In this document: positions 3,098 to 35,118 of the stretch, in pieces | How positions within the stretch are numbered: the first letter of the stretch is position 1 | How the letters are laid out: each line of letters starts with the position of its first letter | Assembly (NCBI GenBank): GCA_963932905.1 | Contig: CAWVRN010000012.1 | Span: 32,001 to 96,000 of the forward strand | DNA: 64,000 nucleotides | Direction of reading: 5' to 3' | Origin: an uncultured Bdellovibrio sp. | GTDB taxonomy: Bacteria; Bdellovibrionota; Bdellovibrionia; Bdellovibrionales; Bdellovibrionaceae | The notes under the pieces: model-generated | Database searches by the model: none | Told to the model about the DNA's origin: nothing | What the model saw: only the letters and a program-made list of their open reading frames with translations | Position numbers and translations under genes: made by a program

Positions 3098-4272
3098 TTC
3101 AATCGCTTCTTGCGATCACTCTTTTTATGACCGTGTCGTGTTCGCAAAATGCGATGCATACGTTAGGAGCCAACGATACTGATACGTCAAAATTGGCTCC
3201 GCCAGAAGAGGACGGCGATTCAGAATTTCATCCGCCACCCGAAGACGATGGCCCGAGTCAAGCGACTCCGGTAATTGTCAGTCCGACTCCAAATTTTTGT
3301 TCAAAGTTAGATCTAGCTGGCGTGACGTGGCCAATCGAATTAGCCTCCGCAGGGCAGGCCCATTTAGCTTTAGCTTTAAATATCACCGGCAGTTTCGAAG
3401 GCCGCAGTGGTTGGGCGAACTTAAGCAATAACTTTGATGGGATGGGTTTTAGTATCGGTTTATTGCAACAAAACTTGGGCATGGGGTCGATGCAGCCTTT
3501 ATTGAATGAATTGATCACAGCTAAGGGACAAGGTGCCAACGTTGGTATGGATGAGGCCCACTATGTGGCTTTAAAATCCATGGTCAGTCAGTGGAACAAA
3601 GATCAAGCAGCCAAAGCCTCATCGGCTTCATTTATCTCGGAATCAGCTGGCAGCGAGGATTCTCCGTTTTTAAATGATAACGTGAATATTTCTCGGTACG
3701 ATGTGGATTATGACGCACCAGTTTCAGAAGTATCTAATGAAATCATACCTCTAAGCGACACGCTTTCGGCGAAGAGCGTCGCTACCGCGAATAAAAACTC
3801 GGTGAGTTGGGCGTTAAAAAATATTTATTCTGATCGTGGTAAGACATTTAAATCGGATTGGAACGAAAACTTAACGAACATGGCGCAATCAAAGCCCTAT
3901 GTAAGTTTGCAATTAAAGTACGCGATGAAGCTATACAATCAGGCATTTCGATACTTTCAATCCTTTAAATTAGGCACTTTAAGCAGTTTCCTGCTGATGT
4001 TCGATTTCGTAGTACAAAATGGTGGTTTTAAGCAGCGTGTATTTGATGATTATGCGTTGAAATTAAAGGCGCAACCGAATATGAGTGAGCAAGACAAAGC
4101 ACTTCTGATATTACAACTACGTCTTCGTGATGTTTCAGTCCGGTGGCAAAATGACGTCAGTGCCAGAAAAAAAACGATTATTTTTTCTGAAGGCACTGTA
4201 CATGGGGCCAAAAGGAATCTGAAATCGGAGTATTGTTATACGCCGAGCTCACCTGTCCTAACGCAACCTTAA
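3082..4272 (+). CDS. Lipoprotein with lysozyme/chitosanase-like (GH46-type) catalytic motif
   Basis: Lipobox VSC; Pro/acidic linker; ITGSFEG...NFDGMGFSIG resembles the E...DGRGYTxG motif; FDFVVQNGG. Confidence 0.55.
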   Translation: MSKKIIQSLLAITLFMTVSCSQNAMHTLGANDTDTSKLAPPEEDGDSEFHPPPEDDGPSQATPVIVSPTPNFCSKLDLAGVTWPIELASAGQAHLALALNITGSFEGRSGWANLSNNFDGMGFSIGLLQQNLGMGSMQPLLNELITAKGQGANVGMDEAHYVALKSMVSQWNKDQAAKASSASFISESAGSEDSPFLNDNVNISRYDVDYDAPVSEVSNEIIPLSDTLSAKSVATANKNSVSWALKNIYSDRGKTFKSDWNENLTNMAQSKPYVSLQLKYAMKLYNQAFRYFQSFKLGTLSSFLLMFDFVVQNGGFKQRVFDDYALKLKAQPNMSEQDKALLILQLRLRDVSVRWQNDVSARKKTIIFSEGTVHGAKRNLKSEYCYTPSSPVLTQP

Positions 4273-4432: not shown

Positions 4433-5620
4433 ATGTACTTTAACCATCGAGCGACTTATTTGGCTCTAACTCTGACACTGTTTTTGTCAGCAGTTTTTCA
4501 AGCCAAAGCTCAAAGCTCTTCGACACTTTCTGTGTCGCCAAATCTTTCAGCTCCGAAAGATGAAGAAGAAAAACCATATAAACCAACAGGCAAAGTTGCG
4601 TTTACTTTGTATAGCCGGCAAACGGAAGACTCTTTTTCTCGCAGTCATCAAGGCACAATTATAATTAACCCTGATTTTTCTGCCAAGTATGGTGATTATA
4701 TTTCATTGAATCTTGAATTGGCGGGGTTATTCGGTTCCGGAAATGCGAGTAATTTTTGGACAGATGATGGGAAGGCGCCGAACTCAATTTTGCTCCACGA
4801 AGCTGCAGCAAAATTAAATTTACACAAAAATGTTTATATTAAAGCTGGCGCATTGAAAGCGACGTTGAATCCGTTAGTGTCCATCATGCCTGTTACTTTT
4901 GGTGGCGCATTCATGGCGACACAGGAAGAATGGAAAATCGGGGCCGATGACTCGAACATTTCTATAAGTGCCTTTCAAGGGATTCCTTCGTCAGGTACAG
5001 TCACAAAACGTATTTATGATGACGGTACTCAAGCTTATTTTCTGACCCAAACTTTAGCCGGAATGTTAAAGGTGAACACCGGGACGGAATTGAAAGTTGC
5101 AGCGACACGTTTTCAATTTGAAAACCTATCAACAAACGTAGCCACGGATTCTTATTTCTTGGGAAACTCGCTGTCTTCATTTGAAGGCAGTTCGAAATCA
5201 TTCCGTTTCCGCAATGGTTTTATGGGAACAGAGTCGGGCGCAACGGTAAAACAAGAAATTGGTAAACACGAAGTGTTCGCGTTCGTTTCAACAATCATCA
5301 ATGATCAAGCCGCTGAAGGTAAAAACAAAGGTAGGATGGTTGGCGGCAGCGTTAAAGCTGTATTCGGTAATTACATCGTTCGTCCTTCTTACACTCGATT
5401 TAACTACGATGCGGATGTGACTCCGGCAGTATACACAACAATGACTAGTCGTTTTCAAAATCGTGATGGTTACCGCGTGGGTATCGATATCGAATTGAAA
5501 AAAGAAAGACTCGCTTTAAAAAATTACTACATCAAAATGGATTTAAAAGATGCAAATCCATACCTTGCTGATCGTGAAATCTACAACATAGCTGTGGAGG
5601 CTAAGTATGACATTTTCTAA
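4433..5620 (+). CDS. Outer-membrane beta-barrel (putative porin)
   Basis: Signal peptide from ATG 4433 (RBS GGGGG); alternating beta-strand pattern; C-terminal YDIF. Confidence 0.65.
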   Translation: MYFNHRATYLALTLTLFLSAVFQAKAQSSSTLSVSPNLSAPKDEEEKPYKPTGKVAFTLYSRQTEDSFSRSHQGTIIINPDFSAKYGDYISLNLELAGLFGSGNASNFWTDDGKAPNSILLHEAAAKLNLHKNVYIKAGALKATLNPLVSIMPVTFGGAFMATQEEWKIGADDSNISISAFQGIPSSGTVTKRIYDDGTQAYFLTQTLAGMLKVNTGTELKVAATRFQFENLSTNVATDSYFLGNSLSSFEGSSKSFRFRNGFMGTESGATVKQEIGKHEVFAFVSTIINDQAAEGKNKGRMVGGSVKAVFGNYIVRPSYTRFNYDADVTPAVYTTMTSRFQNRDGYRVGIDIELKKERLALKNYYIKMDLKDANPYLADREIYNIAVEAKYDIF

Positions 5621-8015
5621 ACAAGCATTAACATTCGCTTTGGCCCTAGTATTGGGTGCCGTAGTTAGTTGTGGAAAACGTGATGATCATATGCGTACTT
5701 CTGATCCGGATTCAGATGCGACTTTCTACGTAGATAAAGACGTAAAAATTTGGGGCAAAGTGATCGTTACTCGTGACGTTCAACAAAAACCCAATCAAAA
5801 AGATTATAAAATCCAAGCATGTATCAAAGATAACGCGTTACTTGCGATTGTGCAGTTCCAAGACTTCAAAGTGATTGCAGCTGACGGACAAGAGATGGTG
5901 AAAACAACGGACAAATTTGGTTGCATCATTTGGGACGAACAAATTCGTTACGATGCTTTAGCAAACGAAGCAGAATTATTGGTGCATCGTAAAGTGCAAG
6001 CCATCAGTGGTCATGCCGGCACAGTGACTTTGGATTTAGCAATCAATCCTTGGGCATCTGAAGACTCTTTGACCGTGACTGATTTACGTTATGATGAAGC
6101 CTTAAAAGCAAAAACTACAGCGGATGCAGTTTCTTATTCGATGACCCAGTTTCAATCGGATGAAACTCATTCAAGCCCAGCGTTTTCGATGGAAGTTAAC
6201 AAAACGCGCGTAGCGGAAGCGATCGCAAGTCAAAAGAACAAGAAATCGACTGCCGTTGGTCCTGAAACAAGAATGCGTTTAGACGCGATCCAAATGCAAT
6301 TCTTAGGTCATGATTACAGTCAGTACGAAATCACTCCGACATTGAATTTGAAAGTGGCTCATAAATACAGAATTCGTATCAGTCCTCAGTTCATTCGTGA
6401 GAATTTCAATGGAAAGCAAATCTTTGAAACTATTGCCAGCGGTAATGTTAAATTCCACGTAGCGATCTTGAAAGACACAGTAAATCCTAAAGCAGGAACG
6501 ACTTACCAAATGGGTGACGTTCTTTCGACATCAGAATTTGTCGGTGAAATGATCGACGGCGTGATGGTGGCCGACGTGACTTTGAAATTCCAAGACTTGG
6601 CTCCGTTAACTGGACGAACGATCTTGTTAATGACGGCGTCGTCATTACCTGGCTACATTCAATTCCGCGATGGCAGCTATATTTCTCCGGTGGGTCCATT
6701 AGTGGCGGCGTCTTCAATTTCGTTTGTTCCAAGTAACTGGAGCGCCGAAGTGATTCACGAAAATAACGTGAAGTACCTAGCTCAAAAAGAAAATCGATCT
6801 AAATCTGTTTCTAATTATGACTACTTCAAACAAAAAACTGGTTTCGTAGAAGTGCCACGCAAAATTGATTTAGCTTATGTTGGACGTTCTACATCGTCTT
6901 TCACGGCTCACTATACAGAAATGATGACGTCGCTTGAAAAGAACGACATGAAGTTATCACAAGCGACTCAAGCCGCGATTTGTTCATACTTGACTCAAGA
7001 GCGGGCTCGCGGCGTTCGTGTGTGCGATTCTAAAGCGATTGATTTGATGAACTTCCGTATGCGTGAAATCGTTGAAGAGATCACAAATCCCGTTCCTCAG
7101 CGCGAAGGTATCACGTTAAATGAAGATCTAACGATCAATATGAATTACTTGATCTCTCAAGAGCAAATCAAAGGTAAAGCTCAATCGGCACGAGCGGGTT
7201 GGAATGCGGGCTTAACGGCTGGTATGACTGCCGGTTTAAATGCCGGTTTAGATTTAGATTTGTTGAACAAGTTACAAGATGGTCAAGTTCCTGGATTTAA
7301 ATTGCTGTCGTGGATTTCAAAAATGCTTGGTAACACGGCTCCAGGTAAACCAATCCCAGTAGATCCTAAAGATCCAAATGGTCCAACAATACCAGGCGAC
7401 CCAGTTGTTGTTCCGCCAAAAAGCACATTCGGTACGAAATTAGGAGCGAACTTAGGTGGTAACATCGGCGGCATGGCGACGTACAATAACGATTTGTTCA
7501 CTTGGAATTTAAGTGATTCAAGACGCGAAACAGGTTCGATCACAACGTCTGTGAAATTTGGAGCGAATGCCGAAATGAAAATTTTCAGTTTCCAAGGCAA
7601 ATTCCGCAAATGCTGGCTTGCTAACTTAAGCGCTCCTCTGAAAGACCAAATTGCGAAACAAGCAGGCAAAGACTTTGCGGCACTTAATTTACCAAAAGGT
7701 GTAGTGGCGTGCTTGCCGAAAATCTCTGAAGGCAAACGCAACGAAATGTTCGTATTAGTGAATTCGATCACAGGTATCGCCAATTCGCCGCTAACAGACT
7801 CATTGGCTAGCAGTGAAGCCCCACTACGAATGTTCTTCCGTGGTCCAATGGGCTACCCAGTTTTCAAACACCTAGTCATGGAAAAGAAAATGGAAGTCAG
7901 CTTCAACAAATTCCCGGTTGAAAAACTAGTCAGCGAAGTTCAATCACTGAAAAACGAAGGCGATATGTTCTTGAATCAGGAATTTCCTGGTGTGTTGAAC
8001 AACGTGATTCAATAG
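5607..8015 (+). CDS. Large hypothetical lipoprotein (802 aa)
   Basis: Lipobox VVSC; GGAGG RBS; overlaps upstream porin gene; Gly-rich and Pro-rich insert in C-terminal half. Confidence 0.8.
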   Translation: MTFSKQALTFALALVLGAVVSCGKRDDHMRTSDPDSDATFYVDKDVKIWGKVIVTRDVQQKPNQKDYKIQACIKDNALLAIVQFQDFKVIAADGQEMVKTTDKFGCIIWDEQIRYDALANEAELLVHRKVQAISGHAGTVTLDLAINPWASEDSLTVTDLRYDEALKAKTTADAVSYSMTQFQSDETHSSPAFSMEVNKTRVAEAIASQKNKKSTAVGPETRMRLDAIQMQFLGHDYSQYEITPTLNLKVAHKYRIRISPQFIRENFNGKQIFETIASGNVKFHVAILKDTVNPKAGTTYQMGDVLSTSEFVGEMIDGVMVADVTLKFQDLAPLTGRTILLMTASSLPGYIQFRDGSYISPVGPLVAASSISFVPSNWSAEVIHENNVKYLAQKENRSKSVSNYDYFKQKTGFVEVPRKIDLAYVGRSTSSFTAHYTEMMTSLEKNDMKLSQATQAAICSYLTQERARGVRVCDSKAIDLMNFRMREIVEEITNPVPQREGITLNEDLTINMNYLISQEQIKGKAQSARAGWNAGLTAGMTAGLNAGLDLDLLNKLQDGQVPGFKLLSWISKMLGNTAPGKPIPVDPKDPNGPTIPGDPVVVPPKSTFGTKLGANLGGNIGGMATYNNDLFTWNLSDSRRETGSITTSVKFGANAEMKIFSFQGKFRKCWLANLSAPLKDQIAKQAGKDFAALNLPKGVVACLPKISEGKRNEMFVLVNSITGIANSPLTDSLASSEAPLRMFFRGPMGYPVFKHLVMEKKMEVSFNKFPVEKLVSEVQSLKNEGDMFLNQEFPGVLNNVIQ

Positions 8016-8048
8016 TTCTTTGTTTATCCTTCAATTATGATTACGCGG

Positions 8049-8079
8049 AAAGGGCTCTAGAAATAGAGCCCTTTTTTTT
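8049..8079 (+). terminator. Rho-independent terminator
   Basis: AAAGGGCTCTA-GAAA-TAGAGCCC followed by T8. Confidence 0.9.
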
Positions 8080-8081
8080 GG

Positions 8082-8171
8082 GGTGCCAGCCTACTTTTCC
8101 GGACGCGCCGCAAACGGTGCCAGGCTACTTTTACGTAAGCACTGTGTCCGGAATAGTAGCCTGGCACCGTT
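8082..8171. repeat. Cluster of three REP-like repeats (two forward, one inverted) matching the RAYT-flanking repeat
   Basis: GGTGCCAGCCTACTTTTCCGGAC 8082-8104 (identical to 33708-33730); GGTGCCAGGCTACTTTTACGTA 8116-8137; reverse copy 8146-8168. Confidence 0.9.
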
Positions 8172-8274: not shown

Positions 8275-8820
8275 ATGGGTTTTGGTTCTGCGCCGGAATG
8301 GTTTGAAGGGTTTTATAGGGAGTTTTATCCAAAGCTCTTTCGTTATGCTTTGCGCTTTGTTGAAGTGTCTAAGGCTAGTGAAATTGTTCAGGATTGCTTT
8401 TTAAAGCTTTTAAATGAGCCGGATAAGGAGCCAGACCATTTAGCCTCGTGGCTGTATGTGACCTGTCGTAATCAATGTATTGATGAAATACGAAGGAGAA
8501 AGAAGATGAAGTCGTCGGACGAAATGGATGAAGACCAGCTTGTCGATCAAAGCGACCATTTGGATGATCAAATATATCAGTCTCAGATCAATCAACAATT
8601 AACGGTGGCCTTGGCGGCGTTGTCGTTCAAGGAAAAGGAAGTCATTCGACTAAAGTTTCAAGACGGACTTAGTTACCAGCAAATCAGTGATATCACTGGG
8701 CATAACGTAAATTATGTGGGTGTTCTGATTCATGAAAGCGTTCAGAAAATTAAAGGCAGTGTATTGAAGATCGGTCCTGCAACTCTTAATAAGAAAGGAG
8801 TTCAAAATGGAAAAAAGTAA
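8275..8820 (+). CDS. ECF-family RNA polymerase sigma factor
   Basis: 181 aa; region 2 (EIVQDCFLKL, SWLYVTCRNQCID) and region 4 (KEVIRLKFQDGLSYQQIS). Confidence 0.92.
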   Translation: MGFGSAPEWFEGFYREFYPKLFRYALRFVEVSKASEIVQDCFLKLLNEPDKEPDHLASWLYVTCRNQCIDEIRRRKKMKSSDEMDEDQLVDQSDHLDDQIYQSQINQQLTVALAALSFKEKEVIRLKFQDGLSYQQISDITGHNVNYVGVLIHESVQKIKGSVLKIGPATLNKKGVQNGKK

Positions 8821-10936
8821 ATTAACGGCGTATGCATTAAATGAAGTCTCTGAAGCCGAAAGAGCAGAAATCGAAGCGTATTTAAATTCTCATCCGATGG
8901 AAAAAGCGGAAGTGGAAGAAATAAAATTAGTGTCATCAATTTTGAAAGCGGAAATGGCGACAGATTTGGTTGTGACGCCGCCACCATTGCCGAAGAAAAA
9001 AATGTCGTTCTGGGGCAAGCTGATGCAGCCAAAAGTTTTGGTGCCGGCGTTGGGCTTTGCGATTATTGGTATCGTTGCATTGCCGACTCTTTGGGATCGT
9101 TTCGTATGGCAGATGACGACTCGACCAGAACAAACTGCTATGTCTCCTGAACCCGATACCATCAACACTGTAGGCAACGGCAGACTCGTTGAAACTCGTG
9201 GTGTTCGTCCGCAAACAACAGCGATGGCGGAAAGAAAACAGATCGGCGGAATTTCTGCTGAAGGGGCTCGCTCGACTAAAGATGATTTAGCATCTCGGGA
9301 ATATGAAGACGCTCAGCCGATGACTACGACCTCTGGTCAATCGCCAACCGGTGCACCTATCGACGGTATGGATTCAAGTGCAAAAGGTCGTGCTAATTCC
9401 TTTGGCGGTCTTGGTGATCCAGCGGCTCCTCAGATGATGGCAAAAAAATCATTAGTCGAACCAGGTCGCATGCCGATGCCGGCGACGCCAGCTCCAGAAA
9501 TTAAGGAAGACACGAACTCGGGTGAAGAGTATAAGCAAAACGCCGAAAATGATTTCGTCCAAGTTTCTAAAGAAGCATTGTCGACATTCTCGATTGATGT
9601 GGATACGGCGTCCTACGCGAATGCGCGTCGATACTTGACGAATTACACTCAGATTCCGCCAGTGGATTCGATCCGCACGGAAGAATTTGTGAATTACTTC
9701 GACTATGATTACAAAGCACCGACGTCAGGACATCCGATCGCTGTTCACTTGGAAGCTACCAAGTCGCCTTGGAATTCAAATCGTGCGATTGTTCGCATTG
9801 GCTTGAAAGGTAAAGAGATCGAAGTGAAAGATCGTCCGAAATCAAACTTGGTATTCTTGATCGACGTATCGGGTTCGATGGAAGATGAAAATAAGTTGCC
9901 TTTGGTGAAGTCCGCTTTGAAAACGTTGACGGAGCAATTGACCGAGAAAGACCGTATCTCGATGGTGGTGTACGCGGGAAGTTCGGGCGTAGTGTTAGAA
10001 AGTACGCCGGGTGATAAGAAAGATAAAATTTTGACCGCGATTCAGAACCTGTCAGCGGGGGGGGGGACGAATGGTGAAGGTGGTATTCGCAAAGCCTACG
10101 AAATTGCGATGAAGAACTATGTGTCGGGTGGTAACAACCGCGTGATATTGGCTTCGGATGGTGATTTCAATGTGGGTGTGACGTCGCCGAAAGAATTACT
10201 GGATATTATCAAAGAGAAATCAGAAGGCGGTGTGTTCCTGACTGTGCTTGGTTTTGGAATGGGTAACTACAAAGATGCGCGTTTGGAAGAAATTTCGAAC
10301 AAAGGCCAAGGTAACTATTTCTACATCGACACAGCGAAAGAAGCGAATAAAGTATTTGTGAATCAATTATCGGGAACTCTGTTCACGATTGCGAAAGACG
10401 TGAAAGTGCAAGTGGAGTTTAATCCTAAGGTTGTTCACTCATATCGCCTCGTGGGCTACGAAAATCGCATGCTGAACAAAGAAGATTTTGCTAACGATAA
10501 AGTGGATGCGGGCGAAATGGGTGCTGGACATAGCGTGACGGCCTTGTATGAAATCGAATGGAAGGGAAATGCGCCGTCGGATATTAAGCTAAAATATCAA
10601 ACGGAAGAAAAAGTTAAGGATACTCCGGGAGCAACGGATGAAATCTTAACAGCGAAAATTCGTTATAAAAAACCAACGAATTCGACCAGCGAGTATTTCG
10701 AACAAGCGTTGGCTAACAAGGTGGCGCCATTATCAGAAACATCATGCTCGACTCGATTCGCAGTGGCCGTAGCCAGCTTCTCACTGTGGATGCGCAAATC
10801 AGCCCAACTAAAAGATTTTGATTCAAACAAAATCCTAGAAATCAGCGAAGGCTGTTTAAAGACCAAGGACAAAAAAGACTCGTTCAAAGAAGAATTCGTC
10901 GACCTAGTAAAAAAAGCCAGAGAGATCAGAAAATAG
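8807..10936 (+). CDS. Anti-sigma-like N-terminus + TM + vWA / YfbK (DUF3520) domain protein
   Basis: LTAYALNE..E..EIE anti-sigma-like start; TM segment; STFSIDVDTASY; MIDAS DVSGS; IAKDVKVQVEFNP. Confidence 0.9.
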   Translation: MEKSKLTAYALNEVSEAERAEIEAYLNSHPMEKAEVEEIKLVSSILKAEMATDLVVTPPPLPKKKMSFWGKLMQPKVLVPALGFAIIGIVALPTLWDRFVWQMTTRPEQTAMSPEPDTINTVGNGRLVETRGVRPQTTAMAERKQIGGISAEGARSTKDDLASREYEDAQPMTTTSGQSPTGAPIDGMDSSAKGRANSFGGLGDPAAPQMMAKKSLVEPGRMPMPATPAPEIKEDTNSGEEYKQNAENDFVQVSKEALSTFSIDVDTASYANARRYLTNYTQIPPVDSIRTEEFVNYFDYDYKAPTSGHPIAVHLEATKSPWNSNRAIVRIGLKGKEIEVKDRPKSNLVFLIDVSGSMEDENKLPLVKSALKTLTEQLTEKDRISMVVYAGSSGVVLESTPGDKKDKILTAIQNLSAGGGTNGEGGIRKAYEIAMKNYVSGGNNRVILASDGDFNVGVTSPKELLDIIKEKSEGGVFLTVLGFGMGNYKDARLEEISNKGQGNYFYIDTAKEANKVFVNQLSGTLFTIAKDVKVQVEFNPKVVHSYRLVGYENRMLNKEDFANDKVDAGEMGAGHSVTALYEIEWKGNAPSDIKLKYQTEEKVKDTPGATDEILTAKIRYKKPTNSTSEYFEQALANKVAPLSETSCSTRFAVAVASFSLWMRKSAQLKDFDSNKILEISEGCLKTKDKKDSFKEEFVDLVKKAREIRK

Positions 10937-10941
10937 AAACA

Positions 10942-11008
10942 GGTACCTCCTAACATTCTGGTACCCGTAGCGTTAGACACGCCGGGTACCAGAATGTTAG
11001 GAGGTACC
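10942..11008. repeat. Perfect 26-bp inverted repeat (REPIN-like doublet) between convergent genes
   Basis: GGTACCTCCTAACATTCTGGTACCCG 10942-10967, 15-nt spacer, exact reverse complement 10983-11008; no U-tract. Confidence 0.9.
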
Positions 11009-11815
11009 CTATTTTAGGGCGTCTAGTAGGTATTTTCTGTAGGTGCCGTTTTTTATGAAGTAGGAGTTTGAGTGGGAGCCGCCTTCGAAGACTTTCCAGT
11101 GTTTGGGGTCTTTTGTTTTTTGGAAGACTTGCTCGCCTTGATCGATGGTGACGACGTTATCTTGGTTGCCATGCATGACGTAGACTGGGATTGGTGAAAT
11201 TAATCCTGGATCGCCGACCCAATTGTCACTCATCAGTAGCCACGCTAGAGGTTGGAAAACCCAAGTGACCCAGCTTCTTGAGGCGACACTTCTGGCCACG
11301 CTTCGGTAGGATGCGAAAGAGGCTTCGATGAAGACCGCTTTGTAGTTTTTCTTTTCATACAGATTCAAGCTCTTCAGCATGATCTGCCCACCCAAGCTCT
11401 GCCCGTAAACAAACAGCGGTAAATCGGGATTAATACCTTCGATTTTTTTCAGCGCTTCGACGCCAGATTTAGCCGTGCTTTCGGGAGTTGGGGATCCCGT
11501 TGATTTGCCATAGCCGGGATAGTCGAAAATCATCATGTCGTAATTATGATCGACCAACCACGACAGCATCGCAAAGTGGGCCGTTAAATTTTGAGCATTG
11601 CCGTGAAAAAAAAGAATTTTAGCTTTTGGGTTTTTGGCGTGAAAATACCAAGCATTAATTTGGTTTCCTTCAGGATCGGGGAAGTTGAGTTCCTCGATAT
11701 CATACAAAAGATCCTGTTTTTGAGTGAATTCTTGTTGCGATGGGTAGTATAGCAAGGAAGAACAACTGCTTAAAAAAAGTACAAATGGTAGAATAAGTAA
11801 AAATCGAAAGTTCAC
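11009..11815 (-). CDS. Alpha/beta hydrolase lipoprotein (YfhR-like)
   Basis: Lipobox LSSC; FFHGNA; GQSLGG nucleophile; HGNQDNVV; late His. Confidence 0.9.
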   Translation of the reverse strand: MNFRFLLILPFVLFLSSCSSLLYYPSQQEFTQKQDLLYDIEELNFPDPEGNQINAWYFHAKNPKAKILFFHGNAQNLTAHFAMLSWLVDHNYDMMIFDYPGYGKSTGSPTPESTAKSGVEALKKIEGINPDLPLFVYGQSLGGQIMLKSLNLYEKKNYKAVFIEASFASYRSVARSVASRSWVTWVFQPLAWLLMSDNWVGDPGLISPIPVYVMHGNQDNVVTIDQGEQVFQKTKDPKHWKVFEGGSHSNSYFIKNGTYRKYLLDALK

Positions 11816-11923: not shown

Positions 11924-12376
11924 GTGTTAAAAAAACTAGTTGTGTTAGTAGCTCTAGTGTCGATTCAATCGATGGCTGCTAATTATGGTATGGCCGGTTG
12001 TGGATTGGGCGCTTTAGTATTCCAAGATCAACCAGGAAAAATTCAAATTTTGGCTGCGACTGTGAACAACATCGTATCACCACAAACATTCGCGATCACG
12101 TCTGGAACTTCAAACTGCTTTGAAGAATCACGTTCAGAAGTCAGCATCCGTTACATCGAGAACAACAAAATCGCGTTAAAAGAAGACGTGGCTCGTGGTA
12201 ATGGCGAAACGATCGATGGTTTAATGACTCTTTGGAATTGCTCTGACAAATCTTCGGTCACTCAAGATTTGAAACGTAATTACAATTCAATCTTTAAATC
12301 AAACGAAACTCTTCAGATTATGAATGACCTTAAATCTAATTCTGAAATCCAAAAATCTTGCAACTCTTTAACATAA
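11924..12376 (+). CDS. DUF3015 family protein
   Basis: YGMAGCGLG...QTFAITSGTSNC...D.ARGNGE; AGGAGG RBS. Confidence 0.85.
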   Translation: MLKKLVVLVALVSIQSMAANYGMAGCGLGALVFQDQPGKIQILAATVNNIVSPQTFAITSGTSNCFEESRSEVSIRYIENNKIALKEDVARGNGETIDGLMTLWNCSDKSSVTQDLKRNYNSIFKSNETLQIMNDLKSNSEIQKSCNSLT

Positions 12377-12393
12377 TATTTGGGATATAATAT

Positions 12394-12969
12394 ATGAAAT
12401 TACTTTTATTATTATTAACTGCTGTTTCTGTATCATTCGCGCAGGCCAAAAAACCAATGAAGCCAGCTCCAAAAGCGGCTCCAGCGCAACAACAACAAGC
12501 TCCAATGCACATGGCTCCGGCTCATGCTGCTCATAAATCAGGCGCTTATTCACGTCCATACGGTATGGCTGGTTGTGGATTAGGTAGCGTGGTTATGGAC
12601 AAGCGTAGCTCACAAGTTCTAGTGGCAACAACTAATGGAACTTCAGGCAATCAAACGTTTGCGATCACTACAGGTACATTGAACTGCCTTGATGATGCAT
12701 CATCACAAGTGGCTGACAAAATGGATAAATACATCCAAATCAACAAAACTCAATTAGCTGGCGATGCCGCTAAAGGTAACGGCGAAACAATCGTAGCCTT
12801 GAGCGAAGTTATGGGCTGCCAATCAAGCCAAAACTTGGGTTCTGCTTTGAAAGCTAACTACCGTGATGTGTTCACTAATGACACCACAAACGAAGTTACT
12901 GACAGCATCATCACTGTGATCCAAAGAGACTCCCAATTATCTCAAGAATGCTCATTCGCTCAGATCTAA
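12394..12969 (+). CDS. DUF3015 family protein (paralog with Pro/Ala/Gln/His-rich N-terminal extension)
   Basis: YGMAGCGLG...NQTFAITTGTLNC...DAAKGNGE. Confidence 0.85.
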   Translation: MKLLLLLLTAVSVSFAQAKKPMKPAPKAAPAQQQQAPMHMAPAHAAHKSGAYSRPYGMAGCGLGSVVMDKRSSQVLVATTNGTSGNQTFAITTGTLNCLDDASSQVADKMDKYIQINKTQLAGDAAKGNGETIVALSEVMGCQSSQNLGSALKANYRDVFTNDTTNEVTDSIITVIQRDSQLSQECSFAQI

Positions 12970-23272: not shown

Positions 23273-24796
23273 TTATTTCGTGATTGTGCTTTTTAATTTT
23301 TCTGCGGCAGCGAAAATGGTTTTCTTTTTCTTTGAATCCATTTTTTCAACTGTGCGGGCCATCATCGACAGGCGTGGATTCTTTAAAAAGAAAGCCTTAT
23401 GTTTTTCTATAAATCCCCAATACAAACCGTCCACACCATCACACCATGGCTCACTGGCTTTATAACCACCCATTTTACGATAGTAGTTGGAACCACAGAA
23501 ATAAGGTTTTGTCGCAAATATCCCTCCGTCAGCGAATAAGGCCATGCCATAAACATTCGGTCCCATCACCCAATCAGAACTATCGATAAACATTTCCATA
23601 AACCATTTGTGAGCCTCTGTTGGGTCAACCTCTAAAAGTAACATAAGGCTTCCGATGATCATCAATCGTTCGATATGGTGAGCATAACCATAGCGAACAG
23701 TTTTTCGAATCGCGTGATCCAGCGGCGCCACCCCCGTGTTTCCCTTGTACCAATGATCCGTTAGTTTTCTGTTGTGCTTGAAGAAATTAGTGGACTCTTG
23801 TTTTTCAGAATAATTTTGATAGATGCCTCGGATGAATTCACGCCATCCAATCACTTGGCGAATGAATCCTTCGGTTGATGCGATTGGTATTTTGTTGTCT
23901 TTGGCATACGCTAGTGTTTCCTGCACCACTTCCGATGGTGTCAGCAGCCCTGTGTTTAAAAAAGGCGTTAACACCGAATGAAAAACAAAATCGCTGTGTT
24001 GGGGGATCGCATCTTCGTACGGGCCAAATTGCAGCAAACGATCGTCTAAGAATCGTTTTAGCCAAGCCTTGGCCCCTTTACGATCCACGGGTAGCCAAAA
24101 ATTTTGCGACTGTCCCGGGTGTTTAGAAAATAACTCGTCCGTGATTTTGATCACATCCCAAGTGATATCGCTGGTCCTTACCAAAGGTACATCTGGTGGC
24201 ACTATTTTATCTGGCAGAGCCAATCGGTTGTCGACGTCAAAACTCCATTGTCCACCGACGGGTTGGTCATTTTTATCCACCAATATTTTCAAACGTTTTC
24301 TTTGTTGTTCATAAAACGTTTTCATAAACGGCTTTTTAGTTTTGCCGAGATAGTTTTTAAATTCAGTCCGTCCCGTTAGAAACATAGGACTAGGTAAAAC
24401 GGTTACATTCAATTTTAATCGGCTAAAGAGTTTCATCAGTCGTGTTTCGAAAAACTTGTCCTCTATTTCAAAGATAGAAACCGAGGTGATTTTTTTTGAC
24501 GTTATGAATGTCTCGAGTGATTTTTCATAAGATCCAGAATCTGGTGCGAGTTTTTCATAGTGAACGGCGATTTTTTTTGAAGTCAGCTCTTGGGCAAAGG
24601 TTCTCATCGCCGCAAGGAAAAAAATAATTTTGTGCTTATGAAACTTGTAATAGGTGCACAGTTCTTGATCTTCGCGCATAAACACATAATCAATATTTTC
24701 CAAATCGGTTTGGGCTGCTTTTAAGTCAAACAATTGGTTTCCTAGAATGACCAAAAGTGATTTTGATTTCGACGTGTCAGTTGAAAGTGTTTTCAT
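23273..24796 (-). CDS. Cryptochrome/photolyase-related protein (PhrB-like bacterial 6-4 photolyase group)
   Basis: ILGNQLF, HKHKI, GGQWSFD..NR, FGPYEDA, GYAHHIERLM, ATKPY. Confidence 0.92.
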   Translation of the reverse strand: MKTLSTDTSKSKSLLVILGNQLFDLKAAQTDLENIDYVFMREDQELCTYYKFHKHKIIFFLAAMRTFAQELTSKKIAVHYEKLAPDSGSYEKSLETFITSKKITSVSIFEIEDKFFETRLMKLFSRLKLNVTVLPSPMFLTGRTEFKNYLGKTKKPFMKTFYEQQRKRLKILVDKNDQPVGGQWSFDVDNRLALPDKIVPPDVPLVRTSDITWDVIKITDELFSKHPGQSQNFWLPVDRKGAKAWLKRFLDDRLLQFGPYEDAIPQHSDFVFHSVLTPFLNTGLLTPSEVVQETLAYAKDNKIPIASTEGFIRQVIGWREFIRGIYQNYSEKQESTNFFKHNRKLTDHWYKGNTGVAPLDHAIRKTVRYGYAHHIERLMIIGSLMLLLEVDPTEAHKWFMEMFIDSSDWVMGPNVYGMALFADGGIFATKPYFCGSNYYRKMGGYKASEPWCDGVDGLYWGFIEKHKAFFLKNPRLSMMARTVEKMDSKKKKTIFAAAEKLKSTITK

Positions 24797-31786: not shown

Positions 31787-32605
31787 TCATCTTCGACAAA
31801 AGACTCTTAAAAAGTTTCTGCTACTTATATCAAGAATTTCCTCGGCGTCCATATTTCTTAGCTCACCTATAGTTTTTGCAACATCTAATAGGGTTTTAGG
31901 CGGGTTTTCGCCCTTATTATAAGCAGGAGGAGGCTGGTCAGGGGAATCTGTTTCTAAACATAGGAATTCTAACGGCAAATTCTGAGCTAACTTACGGGCT
32001 TTCTTATTCTTCTCGTGGCATACCGGGCCGCCAACGGAAATCAGCAGACCTTGCTTGGTCCAAAACTCTGATTGTTCAATACTGCCGCTATAAGAATGCA
32101 GCAGTCCGCGTTTGGTTTTAGGCGCCCACAGTGAAAATATGCGTTCTGTTTCCGGGTGAGCCTGCACGATATGGAACACCATCGGCAATCCCGTCCAATC
32201 GGCTAGCTCGATCTGAGTTTCCAGCGCGTGGATCTGGGAATCCTTGCCTTTTTCGATATAGGCTGGTCGAAAATCCAACCCCATTTCACCGACGGCTAGC
32301 AGAGCACCGGTCTTTTGTTGCTGGCCCAGCAGTCGAGCCAGTTGATCTAAAATCGGATCCAGTTCGTCCACGGTCTTAGAGGCCGCAAAATAGGGATGTA
32401 CGCCAAAGCACAAGCCTATTTGATTTGGCAGCCGTTGATGCAGTTCAAGTTGGCGATTCCAGTCGTCGGGATCAATGCCACCTTGCATGAAGAATCCAAT
32501 ACCTTTGGCCTCGGCTTCGGGGACCCATTGCGCTAAAAGTTCCGGCGAGTCTCCTAGGACTTTGGCAAGGTGGTTGTGACTGTCGATATGGCCTTTTATT
32601 TTCAT
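31787..32605 (-). CDS. tatD: TatD-family hydrolase
   Basis: DSHNH, GVHP, GEMGLD, HSYSG, ETDSP. Confidence 0.9.
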   Translation of the reverse strand: MKIKGHIDSHNHLAKVLGDSPELLAQWVPEAEAKGIGFFMQGGIDPDDWNRQLELHQRLPNQIGLCFGVHPYFAASKTVDELDPILDQLARLLGQQQKTGALLAVGEMGLDFRPAYIEKGKDSQIHALETQIELADWTGLPMVFHIVQAHPETERIFSLWAPKTKRGLLHSYSGSIEQSEFWTKQGLLISVGGPVCHEKNKKARKLAQNLPLEFLCLETDSPDQPPPAYNKGENPPKTLLDVAKTIGELRNMDAEEILDISSRNFLRVFCRR

Positions 32606-32665
32606 AAAACTAGTCTACTGTTTCCCGGGTTAAGCGTCGAAAGAACTAAGTATATCGAGGTACTT

Positions 32666-33703
32666 ATGAAGTCAAAAAACAAGTCATTTGATTATGAAAT
32701 AAAAATGGAAAACGGCCCAATATTAAAGCCCGTGGCGGTTGAGTTCTATAAGAACCACGATCGTGATCACAAGCCGCATAAGCCATTTAAGTACCATTCC
32801 GATATATTGGTGGCATTAAGCTTTACAAACATTTTAAAAACTCTGGATAAAGAGTGCGTGTACGACCTAGATTCCTCGATGGATTTCTGGCGCGCGATGG
32901 AACCACACTACGAACTATACGGTCGTTCAAGAAAACGTGTGGTGGCCTTAACCGAACGCACGGAAACAGTTCCGTCTAACTTAACAGAAAAGATCGAACA
33001 AAAGTGGAACAACATTTTATCTGATGTGTTCTCAAAAGAAAAAATCAATTTGCAAGAACTTCAGCAATTGATCCCGCTAGTAGATTACTTAGAAGACCAT
33101 TTGCAGAAACCATTATTATATAATTTTTCTCTTTCATTTTCTCCAGAATTCCAGCAACGACTGTTGTTGTTATTCTCGCTGCTATCAAATGTGCGTGGAC
33201 TTGTGGCTTTGGATCACAATTCATTTATCGAGGATGCTAGTCACGAAGCTATCAAAATCGATTCGATTACGGATTATTTGGCGAAACCAGAATATGTAGT
33301 GAACGATGCTTTGCTATATTTCCAATTCAAAAAATTGTTTGCGCCATTTGTAACGGGTCGTTCAAGTGATGTTAAGATTGATAAATTATTGTATCGACCT
33401 TTGGAATCTCATTTCCAAAAGTTTTCACACAATGCATGTCAACTAGTAGAAAACTTACCGCAAGCTTTCTTGGGGCAATTAAATCCGATGGAATTAGAAC
33501 AAGCTCTGTATCTGATCCAAATGGATTGGTTACTTGGCTCAGAAGGCGGTTTGATTTTCAAAATCCGCGAAGAACTTTTTGGCCTGCAAGACGGCTACGA
33601 GAAAATCTTCTGGCCAGAATACGATTTCCACGGCCACAAGCATTCAACTCGCTTGCACGTATGCTGCCACGCCAGTTTCGAAGTCGATAAAAAAGCAGCC
33701 TAA
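32666..33703 (+). CDS. Hypothetical protein
   Basis: Long ORF with host-like codon use; GAGG RBS before ATG 32666. Confidence 0.75.
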   Translation: MKSKNKSFDYEIKMENGPILKPVAVEFYKNHDRDHKPHKPFKYHSDILVALSFTNILKTLDKECVYDLDSSMDFWRAMEPHYELYGRSRKRVVALTERTETVPSNLTEKIEQKWNNILSDVFSKEKINLQELQQLIPLVDYLEDHLQKPLLYNFSLSFSPEFQQRLLLLFSLLSNVRGLVALDHNSFIEDASHEAIKIDSITDYLAKPEYVVNDALLYFQFKKLFAPFVTGRSSDVKIDKLLYRPLESHFQKFSHNACQLVENLPQAFLGQLNPMELEQALYLIQMDWLLGSEGGLIFKIREELFGLQDGYEKIFWPEYDFHGHKHSTRLHVCCHASFEVDKKAA

Positions 33704-33707
33704 TTCG

Positions 33708-34471
33708 GGTGCCAGCCTACTTTTCCGGACTCAACGTGTCCAATTTTTCCAAGGTTAATACTGGCAGGTAGATGTCTTTGCATTTTTAAAAAATTATGCC
33801 GAGACCCTTAGTGATTCAACAATCCGAATTTCCCTACAACATCAGCGCTCGATGTATCAACAGAGAGTGGTTTAGTATACCGATGGAAGATGTATGGGGC
33901 ATCTTCTCTGAGGAATTGACTCGAACTTGCCAAAAACACAATTTGCAGGTGCATTCCTTTGTACTGATGAGTAATCATTTTCATCTTATCGCCTCAACTC
34001 CAGAGGCTAACATAAGTCAGTGCATGTTTCAGTTTGTCGGCCAATCCAGCAGACGGCTAGCTAAAAAGGGAAATAGAATCAACGAGACGTTTGCTGGGCG
34101 ACACTATAAATGCATATTGCAACACCCGAACTATTTTTTAAACGCGTACAAATACAATTACCGAAATCCGGTGAATGCCGGTATTTGTGAGTCCGTTGAG
34201 AGCTATCACTACAGCACTCTTCCCGCTGTGATGAAGTTTGCGCAGCCGACAATTCCTCTTCTGGAAGACATCACCTTCAATTCGGATCCCGAGGGTACAT
34301 TGAAGTGGCTTAACGAAGCGCCGGCACCTGATAAATTAGAAGCGGTAAGATGTGGACTGCGACATCAATATTTTAAGTCTAAGAAAGATCGAAACTTAAA
34401 CAAACCCATATTGGTCGATCATGAGATTTTATAACTTTTTCGCAACGAGTCCGGAAAAGTAGGCTGGCACC
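33708..34471. mobile_element. RAYT locus bounded by perfect 25-bp inverted repeats
   Basis: GGTGCCAGCCTACTTTTCCGGACTC 33708-33732 and exact reverse complement 34447-34471. Confidence 0.9.
33796..34434 (+). CDS. REP-associated tyrosine transposase (RAYT; HUH/Y1, IS200/IS605 superfamily)
   Basis: MPR...PY....R..N; FVLMSNHFHL (HUH); KYNYRNPV.AG; YHYST. Confidence 0.9.
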   Translation: MPRPLVIQQSEFPYNISARCINREWFSIPMEDVWGIFSEELTRTCQKHNLQVHSFVLMSNHFHLIASTPEANISQCMFQFVGQSSRRLAKKGNRINETFAGRHYKCILQHPNYFLNAYKYNYRNPVNAGICESVESYHYSTLPAVMKFAQPTIPLLEDITFNSDPEGTLKWLNEAPAPDKLEAVRCGLRHQYFKSKKDRNLNKPILVDHEIL

Positions 34472-35118
34472 TAACGGAAATCGATCGGGTTGATTTCTAA
34501 ATTTCTTAGACTGCGGAAGTCAGGATTCAGGTAGTCAGCTGTCTGTTGCTTGTTCTTGTAACCGAGCACACGGTAGCTCCAGCCTTGTGATGAGCTAATT
34601 TTCCTTAGTAAGAAACAGATCGCATCGCCGACTTCGTACGTATTCGTTTGCACACGAATGATCATATTGTCCGGTGTTTCATCTGTCTTCACCGTTAAAT
34701 CGGTGCAAGGACCCAGCACAGACACACGATTCTCAACCTGTTTCACTTCGCCTACGCATAATACAACGTGGGCGTTCGGAGTTGGGTCAGACGATTTCTT
34801 TTTGTGATGCTGGTAATTAGCATAGTAAATTTTTTCAATCGGGTTCAGTTTTGATTCATCGACCGCTTTAATTTTTTGTTCGATCTGAATATCTTCCGCA
34901 ATGTGATCATCGGCACTGCCGGGGATCTTTGTGATCTTGCGTTTCACTTGATAAATCTTGCCCGGGATTAAACTTATTTTCTTCAGCGGTGGGGTCAGCT
35001 CAAAGTACGTGTAGGCATCGATGCGCAGATCATAGCCCAACATCAATACGCCGTCTTTAAAATCGAAGAACGAGTCGATTAGTAATATTAAATAATCTTC
35101 TTCACGGACCAGGCTCAA
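34471..35118 (-). CDS. Hypothetical protein
   Basis: 215-aa ORF coupled to the DedA gene (4-bp overlap). Confidence 0.7.
   Translation of the reverse strand: MSLVREEDYLILLIDSFFDFKDGVLMLGYDLRIDAYTYFELTPPLKKISLIPGKIYQVKRKITKIPGSADDHIAEDIQIEQKIKAVDESKLNPIEKIYYANYQHHKKKSSDPTPNAHVVLCVGEVKQVENRVSVLGPCTDLTVKTDETPDNMIIRVQTNTYEVGDAICFLLRKISSSQGWSYRVLGYKNKQQTADYLNPDFRSLRNLEINPIDFR

Follow-up and report, generated by a model that had tools for sequence, protein, structure and literature searches.

A polar third-position skew flanks REP elements in an uncultured Bdellovibrio genome

In the genome of an uncultured Bdellovibrio sp., silent third positions in the final 60-80 codons of genes that end against a REP are turned to A or C, and the DNA leaving the REP is turned to G or T. 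In this genome and in its REP-bearing relatives, on the 5' side of each REP unit and over approximately 250 nt, the strand running into the REP shows G-to-A and T-to-C at nearly every tolerant site, i.e. the third positions of codons and, for Leu, also the synonymous first positions, and the strand leaving the REP is correspondingly G/T-rich. A preliminary description of 64,000 nt of one contig (the window) had reported this pattern, and our analyses confirm that the observation is genuine and genome-wide, with DNA entering a REP being A/C-rich and DNA leaving it G/T-rich regardless of gene direction. We suggest, with a probability of roughly one half, that the skew is left behind by a strand-asymmetric DNA transaction with the REP as its anchor.

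The hairpin at 10942..11008 (no strand assigned) is a REPIN, i.e. a REP doublet of the kind handled by RAYTs (REP-associated Y1 HUH transposases), and consists of two inverted units of REP family 1 around a 15-nt loop. Its arms, identified in an inverted-repeat search (10942-10967 and 10983-11008; 26 nt each), are 100% complementary and each contains its own small GGTACC...GGTACC palindrome. A genome search at no more than four mismatches gave 39 family-1 arms in 23 loci; the match at position 77012 of the contig carrying the window (C12) sits within a gene and is probably spurious. Stem variants are compensatory and paired across both arms of one locus (GGAGCC/GGCTCC, GAAACC/GGTTTC, GGTATC/GATACC). 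The RAYT cognate to family 1 lies on another contig (C5:25107-25307, minus strand) between family-1 arms at 24757 and 25469 and matches the PF01797 profile with 30.2 bits (cut-off 23). REPs of both families are short palindromic repeats with many copies that are mostly extragenic, 35 of 50 co-oriented arms are positioned at -12..+10 nt relative to a stop codon, and three ORFs terminate within an arm. A known RNA family was rejected for the REPIN, for which Rfam gave only sub-threshold miRNA-like hairpins (36 bits versus a gathering score of 97).

Genes end on both sides of this REPIN. On the left, the vWA/YfbK_C-domain gene (Pfam) at 8807..10936 (plus strand) stops 5 nt before the left arm and has an A/C-wobble tail at 10690..10936; on the right, the alpha/beta-hydrolase gene at 11009..11815 (minus strand; Pfam Hydrolase_4, Abhydrolase_1) has a stop codon that abuts the right arm and a tail at 11009..11250. 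Recounting reproduced the reported numbers of A/C-ending codons, 31 of the last 36 in the former gene and 39 of the last 40 in the latter with TGG as the sole exception, and the corresponding binomial P values are 2.7e-6 and 1.1e-11 given a genome-wide frequency of A or C at third positions (A/C3) of 0.483. Over the last 40 codons of the plus-strand gene A/C3 is 32/40 compared to 0.457 gene-wide, and over the last 60 codons of the minus-strand gene it is 54/60; the minus-strand gene is the most extreme among 3440 ORFs of at least 150 aa. The last four blocks of the plus-strand gene have A/C3 of 16, 15 and 16 per 20 codons and 8/9, and the mid-gene blocks have 5-12 per 20, in agreement with the G/T-rich wobble positions reported for the middle of this gene. 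CTA and AGA are each used twice in the plus-strand tail, and three times and once, respectively, in the minus-strand tail. Because the 250-nt flanks of the REPIN match only themselves in the genome (E<=1e-3) and encode conserved protein tails, it is ruled out that they belong to the repeat.

REP family 2 has 30 arms in the genome (25 plus 5 variant matches). In the window, GGTGCCAGSCTACTTTT units at 8082, 8116 and 8152 (contig C12 40082, 40116 and 40152), recovered as BLAST copies, form a cluster at 8082..8171 (no strand assigned), upstream of which an intrinsic-terminator-like hairpin is located at ~8046-8078. The ECF sigma-factor gene leaving this cluster (8275..8820, plus strand) has a G/T wobble gradient of 17, 16, 13, 14, 10 ... 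per 20 codons, with 42 of its first 52 codons ending in G/T as counted before, and the 106-nt spacer ahead of it is unskewed (A/C 0.54). The caveat attached to the gene at 5607..8015 holds for its last 17 codons, of which only 5 end in A/C, but 32 of the preceding 43 do. Gene ends with a terminator between them and the REP seemed unskewed on inspection, but shielding by terminators had no clear effect: at distances of 55-100 nt A/C3 is 21-28/40, slightly below the ~28 expected from the distance profile. The RAYT cognate to family 2 (33796..34434, plus strand, 212 aa; PF01797, 35 bits versus a cut-off of 23) is bracketed by inverted family-2 arms at 33708..33724 (plus strand) and 34455..34471 (minus strand), and in an alignment of 12 RAYT sequences N60, H61, H63, K119, Y120, N124, P125 and V126 are invariant. 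The gene at 32570..33703 stops 4 nt ahead of the left arm and has A or C at the wobble position of 36 of its last 48 codons; the gene at 34471..35118 (minus strand) ends at the right arm and is, as previously cautioned, weakly skewed (24/40).

The association of skew and REPs extends over the entire genome. Classifying 3402 gene ends and defining as REP-adjacent those whose stop codon lies at most 120 nt from a REP, the mean A/C3 of the last 40 codons is 29.3 at 49 REP-adjacent ends versus 19.8 at 3327 REP-free ends, and at least 28/40 is reached at 33 of the former versus 46 of the latter (Fisher P 1.9e-45). Conversely, 30 of the classified gene ends reach at least 31/40, and 23 of them are REP-adjacent by this definition. 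The REP-free convergent ends named as a control in the preliminary description lack the skew (mean 19.9/40 at 1077 ends), as do 26 MITE-adjacent ends (19.0/40). Similarly, 32 REP-free ends with unique perfect stems of at least 14 bp (14-19 bp) have a mean of 20.75/40 and a maximum of 27, and this rejects an intrinsic terminator or a generic effect of strong hairpins. A chromosomal replication origin was rejected as the cause: instead of a single point with a whole-replichore skew, the switch is repeated from contig to contig at REP loci, and its effect dies away over ~250-300 nt. A scan for skew at all positions was confounded by coding composition.

With increasing distance from the REP, A/C3 in successive 30-nt bins is 80, 86, 75, 78, 71, 67, 62, 56, 56, 59 and 51%, and the skew thus fades over ~250 nt, at the far end of the 150-250 nt first proposed. 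In genes on the opposite strand, third positions that are A/C on the strand of the arm amount to 65, 47, 72, 68, 63 and 73% per bin (base 51.6%). At least 32 G/T-ending codons among the first 40 occur in 7 of 3440 genes, 3 of which have a REP facing the start; approximately 11 genes face a REP with their 5' end and only 3 of these are strongly skewed. The skew is one-sided per REP unit. At the RAYT on contig C5, the outer flanks of the two arms have 35/40 and 36/40 and the inner sides are near baseline, and a REPIN comprises two inverted units, so that both flanks are affected in mirror image. Noncoding flanks reach only 57, 58, 53 and 50% in the first four bins versus 80, 86, 75 and 78% at third codon positions, and some flanks that are noncoding or contain small ORFs (among them the right one on C19, the left one on C36 and the 106-nt spacer ahead of the ECF gene) are flat although the opposite side of the REPIN is strongly skewed.

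The spectrum fits transitions. At fourfold sites in REP1 flanks the frequencies of A, C, G and T are.36,.39,.07 and.18 compared to.28,.19,.20 and.33 at REP-free ends, and it is C that increases, in a genome with a GC content of 40.7%. NAY codons end in C at.73 versus.37, CTA accounts for.46 versus.15 of Leu codons, the rare codons CTA and ATA are enriched and AGA is also used. The amino-acid composition is barely moved: F, V, T and P keep their frequencies, and a decrease is confined to M and C.

In five gene families including purH, skew is found exactly where a REP-like element occupies the site, and the REP families involved vary between species. The purH gene starts just after the REP, and G/T-ending codons number 20, 19, 19, 19 and 19 of the first 20 in five genomes with the REP upstream versus 10, 12, 8, 11 and 9 in five REP-less relatives; the noncoding leader of purH is likewise G/T-rich. 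REP-less orthologs of the hydrolase gene 11009..11815 retain the protein tail with A/C in 8-15 per 20 codons, and the skew is therefore missing from orthologs that lack the repeat, the second control named in the preliminary description. A RAYT is present in 4/4 REP-bearing relatives versus 0/5 REP-less relatives, which amounts to a single clade contrast. In other genomes of the order, arms flanking RAYTs are skewed at L029 (36/40), L037 (36/40 on both sides) and L041 (37/40), elsewhere in the Bdellovibrionota the skew of RAYT flanks is variable, and pooling of 43 loci gave 60.2% in the predicted direction for near flanks versus 48.6% for far windows. Six IS200-like TnpA loci of the same order (L013-L018) have no flank skew (15-23/40 where enough codons are present). 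In Escherichia coli K-12, 13 gene ends adjacent to REP clusters, which were delineated de novo through 11-mers over-represented within 200 kb of a record without REP features, are also unskewed (mean 16.4/40 versus 18.05), and RAYT/REP chemistry alone is therefore insufficient.

Combining these data, our best guess is that REP-anchored strand-asymmetric repair or resynthesis causes the skew. A recurrent nick or other single-strand event at the REP would render the two strands of a flank unequal: one strand would be exposed or used as template, so that C-to-T and A-to-G changes become fixed, and the other would be excised and recopied, so that its changes are erased. The RAYT would be the obvious candidate agent because enzymes of this family cut single-stranded REP DNA both 5' and 3' of the REP, remain linked to the 5' phosphate through the tyrosine and leave a free 3'-OH, as described in the consulted part of PMC8266576. 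Conceivable forms of this event are gap repair, strand displacement or, in an organism without MutH, mismatch repair directed by the nick; MutS and MutL were found in the genome, which is 98.6% complete, and MutH was not. More tentatively, and at somewhat less than even odds, REPs and RAYTs in the Bdellovibrionota may constitute dispersed sites of a programmed single-strand transaction, in which each REP would recurrently provoke nicking with strand-specific excision or resynthesis, or divert nick-directed mismatch repair, over ~250 nt such that one strand systematically overwrites the other.

Substitution rates bear on this model. In REP-bearing pairs, raw synonymous divergence is 0.20-0.33 in the proximal 40 codons versus 0.34-0.45 distally and lower proximally in 9/10 pairs, in the closest REP-bearing pair it is 0.19 proximally versus 0.18 distally, and REP-less pairs have no such drop at gene ends. 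In a two-state estimate, for which simple added hypermutation predicts 3.2-5.1 for the total rate and 1 for the reverse rate, and a selection-like process 1.2-1.4 for the total, the total rate relative to the distal one is 1.1-2.7 (wide intervals) and the reverse rate (A/C to G/T) is 0.23-0.72 of baseline in 7/7 pairs, all values deriving from non-independent pairs near saturation. The least saturated pair has a ratio of 2.69 (95% 1.62-4.89), above its selection-like prediction of 1.32. The estimate thus falls between the two sets of predictions and, like the noncoding flanks, leaves selection open. In a population comparison in which contigs from 4 metagenome runs were aligned to a 20-kb stretch, with strains at ~99.7% identity or more, the strain differences listed (40 of 155) include none in the 250-nt flanks, and those near the element lie only in the REPIN loop at 10973-10979. 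The preliminary description had read the pattern as the work of a RAYT/REP-linked local mutator. Of that proposal, the REP specificity, the polarity, the decay with distance and the unskewed REP-less orthologs stand; the mutator itself is plausible but not established because the rate estimate is intermediate, several noncoding flanks are unskewed and the near-identical strains lack flank differences among those listed.

Alternatively, the flanks may be under selection at the nucleotide level. An A/C-only strand, or its G/T-only complement, has no Watson-Crick self-pairing, and an adaptive or cost-avoiding skew could prevent self-pairing of the flanks, leaving the REP hairpin as the sole structure to fold whenever the DNA or the transcript is single-stranded, or could rid the flanks of off-target RAYT sites. 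The reduced reverse rate in 7/7 pairs, a total rate of ~1-2.7 that includes the predicted 1.2-1.4, the reduction in synonymous divergence beside REPs that is lacking at the same ends in REP-less genomes, and a protein sequence that is not dragged along all agree with such selection, as does the finding that third codon positions are more skewed than adjoining noncoding DNA. We nevertheless consider it unlikely: a graded constraint reaching over ~250 nt lacks a plausible reason, the effect is one-sided per unit, enrichment of the rare CTA and ATA would be costly for translation, E. coli REPs do without such flanks, and the least saturated pair exceeds the selection-like prediction. Moreover, the two flanks of a REPIN are the arrangement likeliest to pair, yet pairing is no stronger between cognate than between non-cognate flanks (-36.4 versus -36.7 kcal/mol; in-register complementarity 0.290 versus 0.286), and an extension of the palindrome by specifically pairing flanks was rejected on the same numbers. 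The most ordinary causes would be chance, optimisation of codons for translation at gene ends, segments gained by horizontal transfer, or flanks within the repeat. NAY codons ending in C are often the translationally preferred ones, and two genes have high A/C3 throughout (0.75-0.77), but the binomial P of 1e-11 together with the genome-wide REP association, a gradient that begins at the REP, the use of rare CTA, ATA and AGA, the opposite codon bias in genes leaving a REP, and unique flanks that encode conserved orthologous protein tails leave these causes with a negligible probability, and we regard them as refuted by the association, the uniqueness and the ortholog controls.

Two further explanations invoke strand asymmetry without a REP-anchored RAYT reaction, and we hold both to be improbable. 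If a polymerase that has passed the REPIN were of low fidelity, or were switched, for a few hundred nt, G-T mispairs would enrich the nascent strand 3' of the hairpin in G/T; this gives the right polarity, i.e. a G/T-rich strand 3' of the hairpin in both directions, and the two sides of REPINs are indeed alike in strength (34/36, 34/33, 32/39, 37/35). Such a hairpin effect is at odds with the unskewed unique 14-19 bp stems, MITEs with terminal inverted repeats and E. coli REP clusters, and with arms ~700 bp apart around a RAYT, which cannot fold tightly and yet have full skew on their outer sides only (contig C5, and also L037, L029 and L041). Transcription is the second such source, in that read-through, R-loops, stalled RNA polymerase or transcription-coupled repair at the REP could expose or repair one strand. 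That most of the skewed flanks are transcribed gene ends with the stop touching the REP, that some probably untranscribed flanks are flat and that the transcribed ECF gene is skewed beyond a flat spacer would fit. However, where a gene, a REP and purH follow each other in one direction of transcription, the coding strand changes from A/C-rich ahead of the REP to G/T-rich behind it, and this sign flip would therefore require two opposite transcription effects. Deamination of the non-template strand predicts a coding strand rich in G/T, the opposite of what is found at gene ends, strong upstream skew persists in tandem arrangements that lack a convergent partner (33, 35 and 36 of 40), and the REP-free convergent ends are unskewed.

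Strand asymmetries of related form are established for strand-displacement or unidirectional replication, in which C-to-T and A-to-G changes accumulate on the strand that is single-stranded for longer, as in the keto skew between origin and terminus and in the H and L strands of vertebrate mitochondria. The REP skew shares with these a G/T-rich strand facing an A/C-rich partner, a switch of sign at a defined point and a signal carried mostly by silent sites; it differs in having ~45 dispersed repeats as switch points instead of one origin, in its reach of ~250 nt, in its far greater local strength (up to 39/40) and in being one-sided per unit. Transcription-coupled repair and strand-coordinated clusters at resected breaks also give local strand-specific biases because one strand is repaired or exposed more. 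In contrast to the REP skew, transcription asymmetry does not change sign at a point inside one transcript, and a break at the hairpin that is simply resected 5'-to-3' would be expected to give the reverse polarity. TnpA of IS200/IS605, another Y1 HUH enzyme, shares the PF01797 superfamily and the recognition of subterminal hairpins as single-stranded DNA, but these IS elements are multi-copy with the gene inside and the six loci of the same order have unskewed flanks.

A literature search outside subscription papers found no description of a polar skew in REP flanks, and the consulted parts of PMC8266576, PMC3116915 and bioRxiv 10.1101/2021.07.10.451892 do not mention one; the skew is thus apparently undescribed. 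REPs and RAYTs have been known for decades and the cellular role of RAYTs is open, and a strong, polar, distance-graded footprint provides a direct genomic read-out of the strand, direction and reach of a REP-anchored process. Each genome has tens of gene ends whose codon usage, GC3 and synonymous divergence standard models would mistake for selection, horizontal transfer or slow evolution. Should the cause be mutational, the skew would represent a new class of bacterial mutation bias that is local and anchored to an element; if the transaction is programmed, this bias would be sequence-anchored and recode host genes, and the skew would be the first in vivo read-out of the site and strand of RAYT action.

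In their organization, the Bdellovibrio-group elements resemble the REP/BIME/REPIN-RAYT systems (TnpA-REP, 'REPtrons') of E. coli, Pseudomonas, Stenotrophomonas and Marinomonas as portrayed in the consulted parts of the same three sources: many extragenic palindromes lie mostly at 3' gene ends, inverted doublets can fold into a hairpin, and a single RAYT per family lies between inverted REP units. REPs are bound and cleaved as single-stranded DNA by the RAYTs of E. coli, Stenotrophomonas and Marinomonas (PMC8266576, consulted in part), and the Bdellovibrio-group RAYTs carry predicted HUH and tyrosine motifs. Differences from these systems are the strong polar wobble skew of the flanks, which E. 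coli K-12 gene ends lack, the contact between arms and stop codons, and perfectly paired arms of 24-26 nt. The GTAG/CGTC tag at the 5' foot of REPs is unconfirmed here, GTAG having gone unseen among the listed family-1 arms in an uncounted inspection by eye. The Bdellovibrio units begin with (A)AG-GGTACC or GGTGCC, and in family-1 arms GGTACC is mostly preceded by AG, AAAG or TAG.

In the window, the gene for a vWA/YfbK_C protein at 8807..10936 on the plus strand and that for an alpha/beta hydrolase at 11009..11815 on the minus strand (both Pfam assignments) are convergent on a perfect inverted repeat with arms of 26 nt at 10942-10967 and 10983-11008 and a 15-nt loop between them. The preliminary description held that third codon positions are skewed in mirror image around this hairpin and proposed a local mutator linked to REPs and to their Y1 HUH transposases, the RAYTs. 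Our recount agrees with its codon counts here: 31 of the 36 codons at the 3' end of the plus-strand gene end in A/C, as do 39 of the final 40 codons of the minus-strand gene, with TGG as the lone exception. Its further counts were reproduced exactly (G/T endings in 42 of the first 52 ECF codons, A/C endings in 36 of the final 48 codons of the gene before the RAYT), and so were its two caveats, that the gene on the right side of the RAYT has a weak bias (24/40) and that the gene at 5607..8015 has just 5 of its 17 final codons (7965-8015) ending in A/C. In the preceding codons of the latter gene (7836-7964) the count is 32 of 43, and a terminator-like hairpin lies between it and the neighboring REP cluster. 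Genome-wide (4.55 Mb, 58 contigs, 40.7% GC, with the window at C12:32001-96000), the fraction of codons ending in A/C is 0.483 in 3440 ORFs of at least 150 aa, and the 39/40 tail of the hydrolase gene (binomial P 1.1e-11) is the most extreme gene end. Just past this gene, at 11924-12969, two DUF3015 paralogues (150 and 191 aa) lie side by side.

The 67-bp hairpin at 10942-11008 is a REPIN, i.e. a REP doublet, because (i) its arm, GGTACCTCCTAACATTCTGGTACC, recurs in 39 copies with at most 4 mismatches at 23 loci, mostly as inverted pairs, (ii) paired compensatory variants preserve the stem, and (iii) each arm holds its own small palindrome GGTACC...GGTACC. No family reached the gathering score in an Rfam scan of the hairpin. 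Within the arms are a Shine-Dalgarno-like TTAGGAGGT and, as its complement, ACCTCCTAA, which resembles the 3' end of 16S rRNA; in an mRNA the hairpin would conceal both. Two genes of the genome match PF01797 (Y1 transposase): that on contig 5 is flanked on the left and on the right by arms of this family 1, and the window ORF 33796..34434 by arms of a second family, GGTGCCAGSCTACTTTT, of which the cluster at 8.08-8.17 kb also consists. Residues N60, H61, H63, K119, Y120, N124, P125 and V126 are kept across a 12-protein alignment of such RAYTs, and a search with this alignment returned 80 loci labeled mostly Bdellovibrio, Pseudobdellovibrio, Bacteriovorax or Halobacteriovorax, which assigns the organism to Bdellovibrionales. 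Co-oriented arms lie within -12 to +10 nt of the stop codon in 35 of 50 cases. Three ORFs (C2:77172, C3:116319 and C10:71122) read 12 nt into a family-1 arm and terminate on the TAA inside it (GGT ACC TCC TAA); here the REP has thus taken the place of the original stop or C-terminal end.

The link of the skew to REPs is well supported. When 3402 gene ends were sorted by the element found within 120 nt after the stop codon and scored by the number of A/C-ending codons among the last 40, the mean was 30.6 for REP family 1 (n=30), 26.7 for family 2 (n=17), 32.5 for both families (n=2), 19.0 for an unrelated MITE of ~250 bp (n=26) and 19.8 for ends followed by nothing (n=3327). Within the last group, REP-free convergent ends, the comparison proposed in the preliminary description, lack the skew (n=1077, mean 19.9, SD 3.7, maximum 30). 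Ends at unique hairpins with a perfect stem of at least 14 bp have a mean of 20.75 and a maximum of 27 (n=32). At least 28/40 is reached by 33 of 49 REP-adjacent vs 46 of 3327 REP-free ends (Fisher P 1.9e-45), and 23 of the 30 ends with at least 31/40 are REP-adjacent. On the strand that reads into the arm, A/C-ending codons per 30-nt bin amount to 80, 86, 75, 78, 71, 67, 62, 56, 56, 59 and 51%; in the same binning, the profile of the MITE flanks is flat. That the flanks are themselves part of the repeat was rejected, as they are unique sequence coding for protein tails that are conserved in orthologs lacking a REP. The MITE-like element, which served as a control because its flanks lack wobble skew, has terminal inverted repeats starting AGAACTGGCTCCTTAGC / GAACTGGCCCCTTAGCC (14-mers found 39 and 53 times); copies lie for example at C4:43537-43794, C4:51927-52187 and C7:85755-86282, several contigs end in it, and none was seen in the window. 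Some REP-free ends score 32-34/40 (C3:154630-155697, C9:78670-82062, C2:60079-61239 and C23:19046-19561) and could mark sites of a lost REP.

It is likewise well supported that the sign of the skew is set by the strand relative to the REP, independent of gene direction. In genes on the opposite strand, third positions are also A/C-rich on the strand of the arm, more weakly and in few genes. At least 32 G/T-ending codons among the first 40 occur in 7 of 3440 genes, and in three of these, purH, the window ECF gene and a contig-9 gene, a REP faces the start and a gradient is present. The skew is one-sided per REP unit: at solo arms it is confined to the 5' side, and around the contig-5 RAYT the outer flanks of the arms score 35/40 and 36/40 and the inner sides are close to baseline. 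Fourfold sites in family-1 flanks have A, C, G and T at.36,.39,.07 and.18 vs.28,.19,.20 and.33 at REP-free ends; NAY codons end in C at.73 vs.37, two-fold A/G codons (Gln, Lys, Glu) end in A at.87 vs.73, and CTA makes up.46 vs.15 of Leu codons. The net change on the REP-reading strand is thus G to A and T to C, and on the opposite strand C to T and A to G. Relative to the REP-free level, amino-acid usage is almost unmoved (M 0.59, C 0.66, Q 1.36; F, V, T and P ~1).

Across nine congeneric genomes, we compared five gene families: purH and the gene upstream of it, the hydrolase, and one gene each from contigs 26 and 2. The skew occurs exactly where a REP-like element occupies the site, in the genome under study (G000), in G003 and G006 and mostly also in G008 and G009; it is absent from the orthologs of all five families in G001, G002, G004, G005 and G007, so that the same codons without the repeat, named beforehand as an observation that would count against a REP effect, were not seen. 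In the first 20 codons of purH, those ending in G/T number 20, 19, 19, 19 and 19 with a REP upstream and 10, 12, 8, 11 and 9 without. RAYT profile matches are present in 4/4 REP-bearing relatives and 0/5 others (completeness 99, 83, 99, 88 and 99%), a pattern that counts as one clade contrast and not as five independent ones. The REP families at one site vary by species, including GGTGCCAGGTCCTAAAA, AAAAGTCAGCTGCT and AAGGTACCTCCTACA. At the orthologous intergenic sites L051-L054, L063-L067 and L075-L079 in G000, G003, G006, G008 and G009, different families are found per species, with longer arrays in G003 and G006 (~100-250 nt between arms), which looks like long-term REP occupancy with family turnover.

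Elsewhere in the order, arms flanking RAYTs are skewed at L029 (36/40), L037 (36/40 on both sides), L041 (37/40) and L030 (32/40); six IS200-like TnpA loci gave 15-23/40 where the stretch held enough codons. We pooled 43 of 80 named RAYT loci, those in which a flanking inverted repeat could be detected and one or more near flanks had enough codons, excluding L091, L103, L107 and L130 (far values only), the betaproteobacterial L159, L162 and L163 (weak, 18-24/40) and every locus lacking an inverted repeat or an ORF. Near flanks (n=64) are 60.2% in the predicted direction, with 16 at 70% or above, vs 48.6% for far windows (n=81), with none at 70% or above; across Bdellovibrionota, the effect is thus widespread, yet variable. 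As an outside control, the first 200 kb of E. coli K-12, with 8 REP clusters detected de novo, showed no skew in a small sample (13 REP-adjacent gene ends, mean 16.4/40, vs 18.05 for 148 ORFs). In the literature searched, including passages on REPs and RAYTs, we found no description of this phenomenon.

The simplest reading is that a REP-anchored event renders the two strands of the flank unequal. In other bacteria, according to PMC8266576, RAYTs cleave REP DNA in single-stranded form on both the 5' and the 3' side of the hairpin and remain linked to the 5' phosphate, leaving a 3'-OH. If a nick at the REP led to removal and resynthesis of the REP-reading strand, lesions on that strand would be lost and those on its partner made permanent; the outcome would be the same if the partner strand were exposed or if mismatch repair were directed by the nick, and each of these routes would give the right sign and a decay over a tract length. 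MutS and MutL are present in the genome and a search for MutH found none, which is compatible with nick-directed repair and is no test of it. A purely transcriptional cause, by comparison, needs opposite effects upstream and downstream of a REP in one transcript and fails at tandem arrangements, and a replication effect of the hairpin alone fails both the unique-hairpin control and the solo arms flanking RAYTs. The rare codons, the controls and the reversed bias downstream of REPs exclude a translational or chance cause.

A RAYT-nick mutator is a plausible candidate for the cause, and the skew could also stem from a selection-like force. Several observations argue against a simple mutator. Noncoding flanks have a mean A/C of just 57-58%, and several are flat where the partner flank is skewed; others, such as those at the contig-9 cluster (both sides) and the purH leaders, are strongly skewed. 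Of ~11 genes with their start toward a REP, only 3 are strongly skewed. In 9 of 10 REP-bearing pairs, raw synonymous divergence is lower beside REPs (G000-G006, 0.24 vs 0.37); in the closest such pair, G003-G006, it is 0.19 beside REPs vs 0.18 distally, and in REP-less pairs 0.47 vs 0.49. In a two-state model that corrects for skewed composition, fitted to 7 non-independent pairs of which several are near saturation, the total rate is 1.1-2.7 times the distal one with wide intervals; relative to baseline, the forward rate is 1.9-4.8-fold and the reverse rate 0.23-0.72-fold. The total expected under added hypermutation is 3.2-5.1, with the reverse rate unaltered; it is 1.2-1.4 under selection-like forces and 1.0 under pure strand-copying.

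In metagenome contigs of near-identical strains (four runs), no flank difference is among the 40 of 155 differences listed, and none of those listed falls in the REPIN arms of 10942-11008. Relative to the window, these strains carry listed changes in the loop of the REPIN at 10973-10979 (C>T, A>G and a 1-nt insertion and deletion). At C36:9140-9386, a small co-oriented ORF ending 9 nt before an intact REPIN is unskewed (A/C 0.45 over 120 nt), which may reflect a recent rearrangement; the other flank of the same REPIN scores 33/40.
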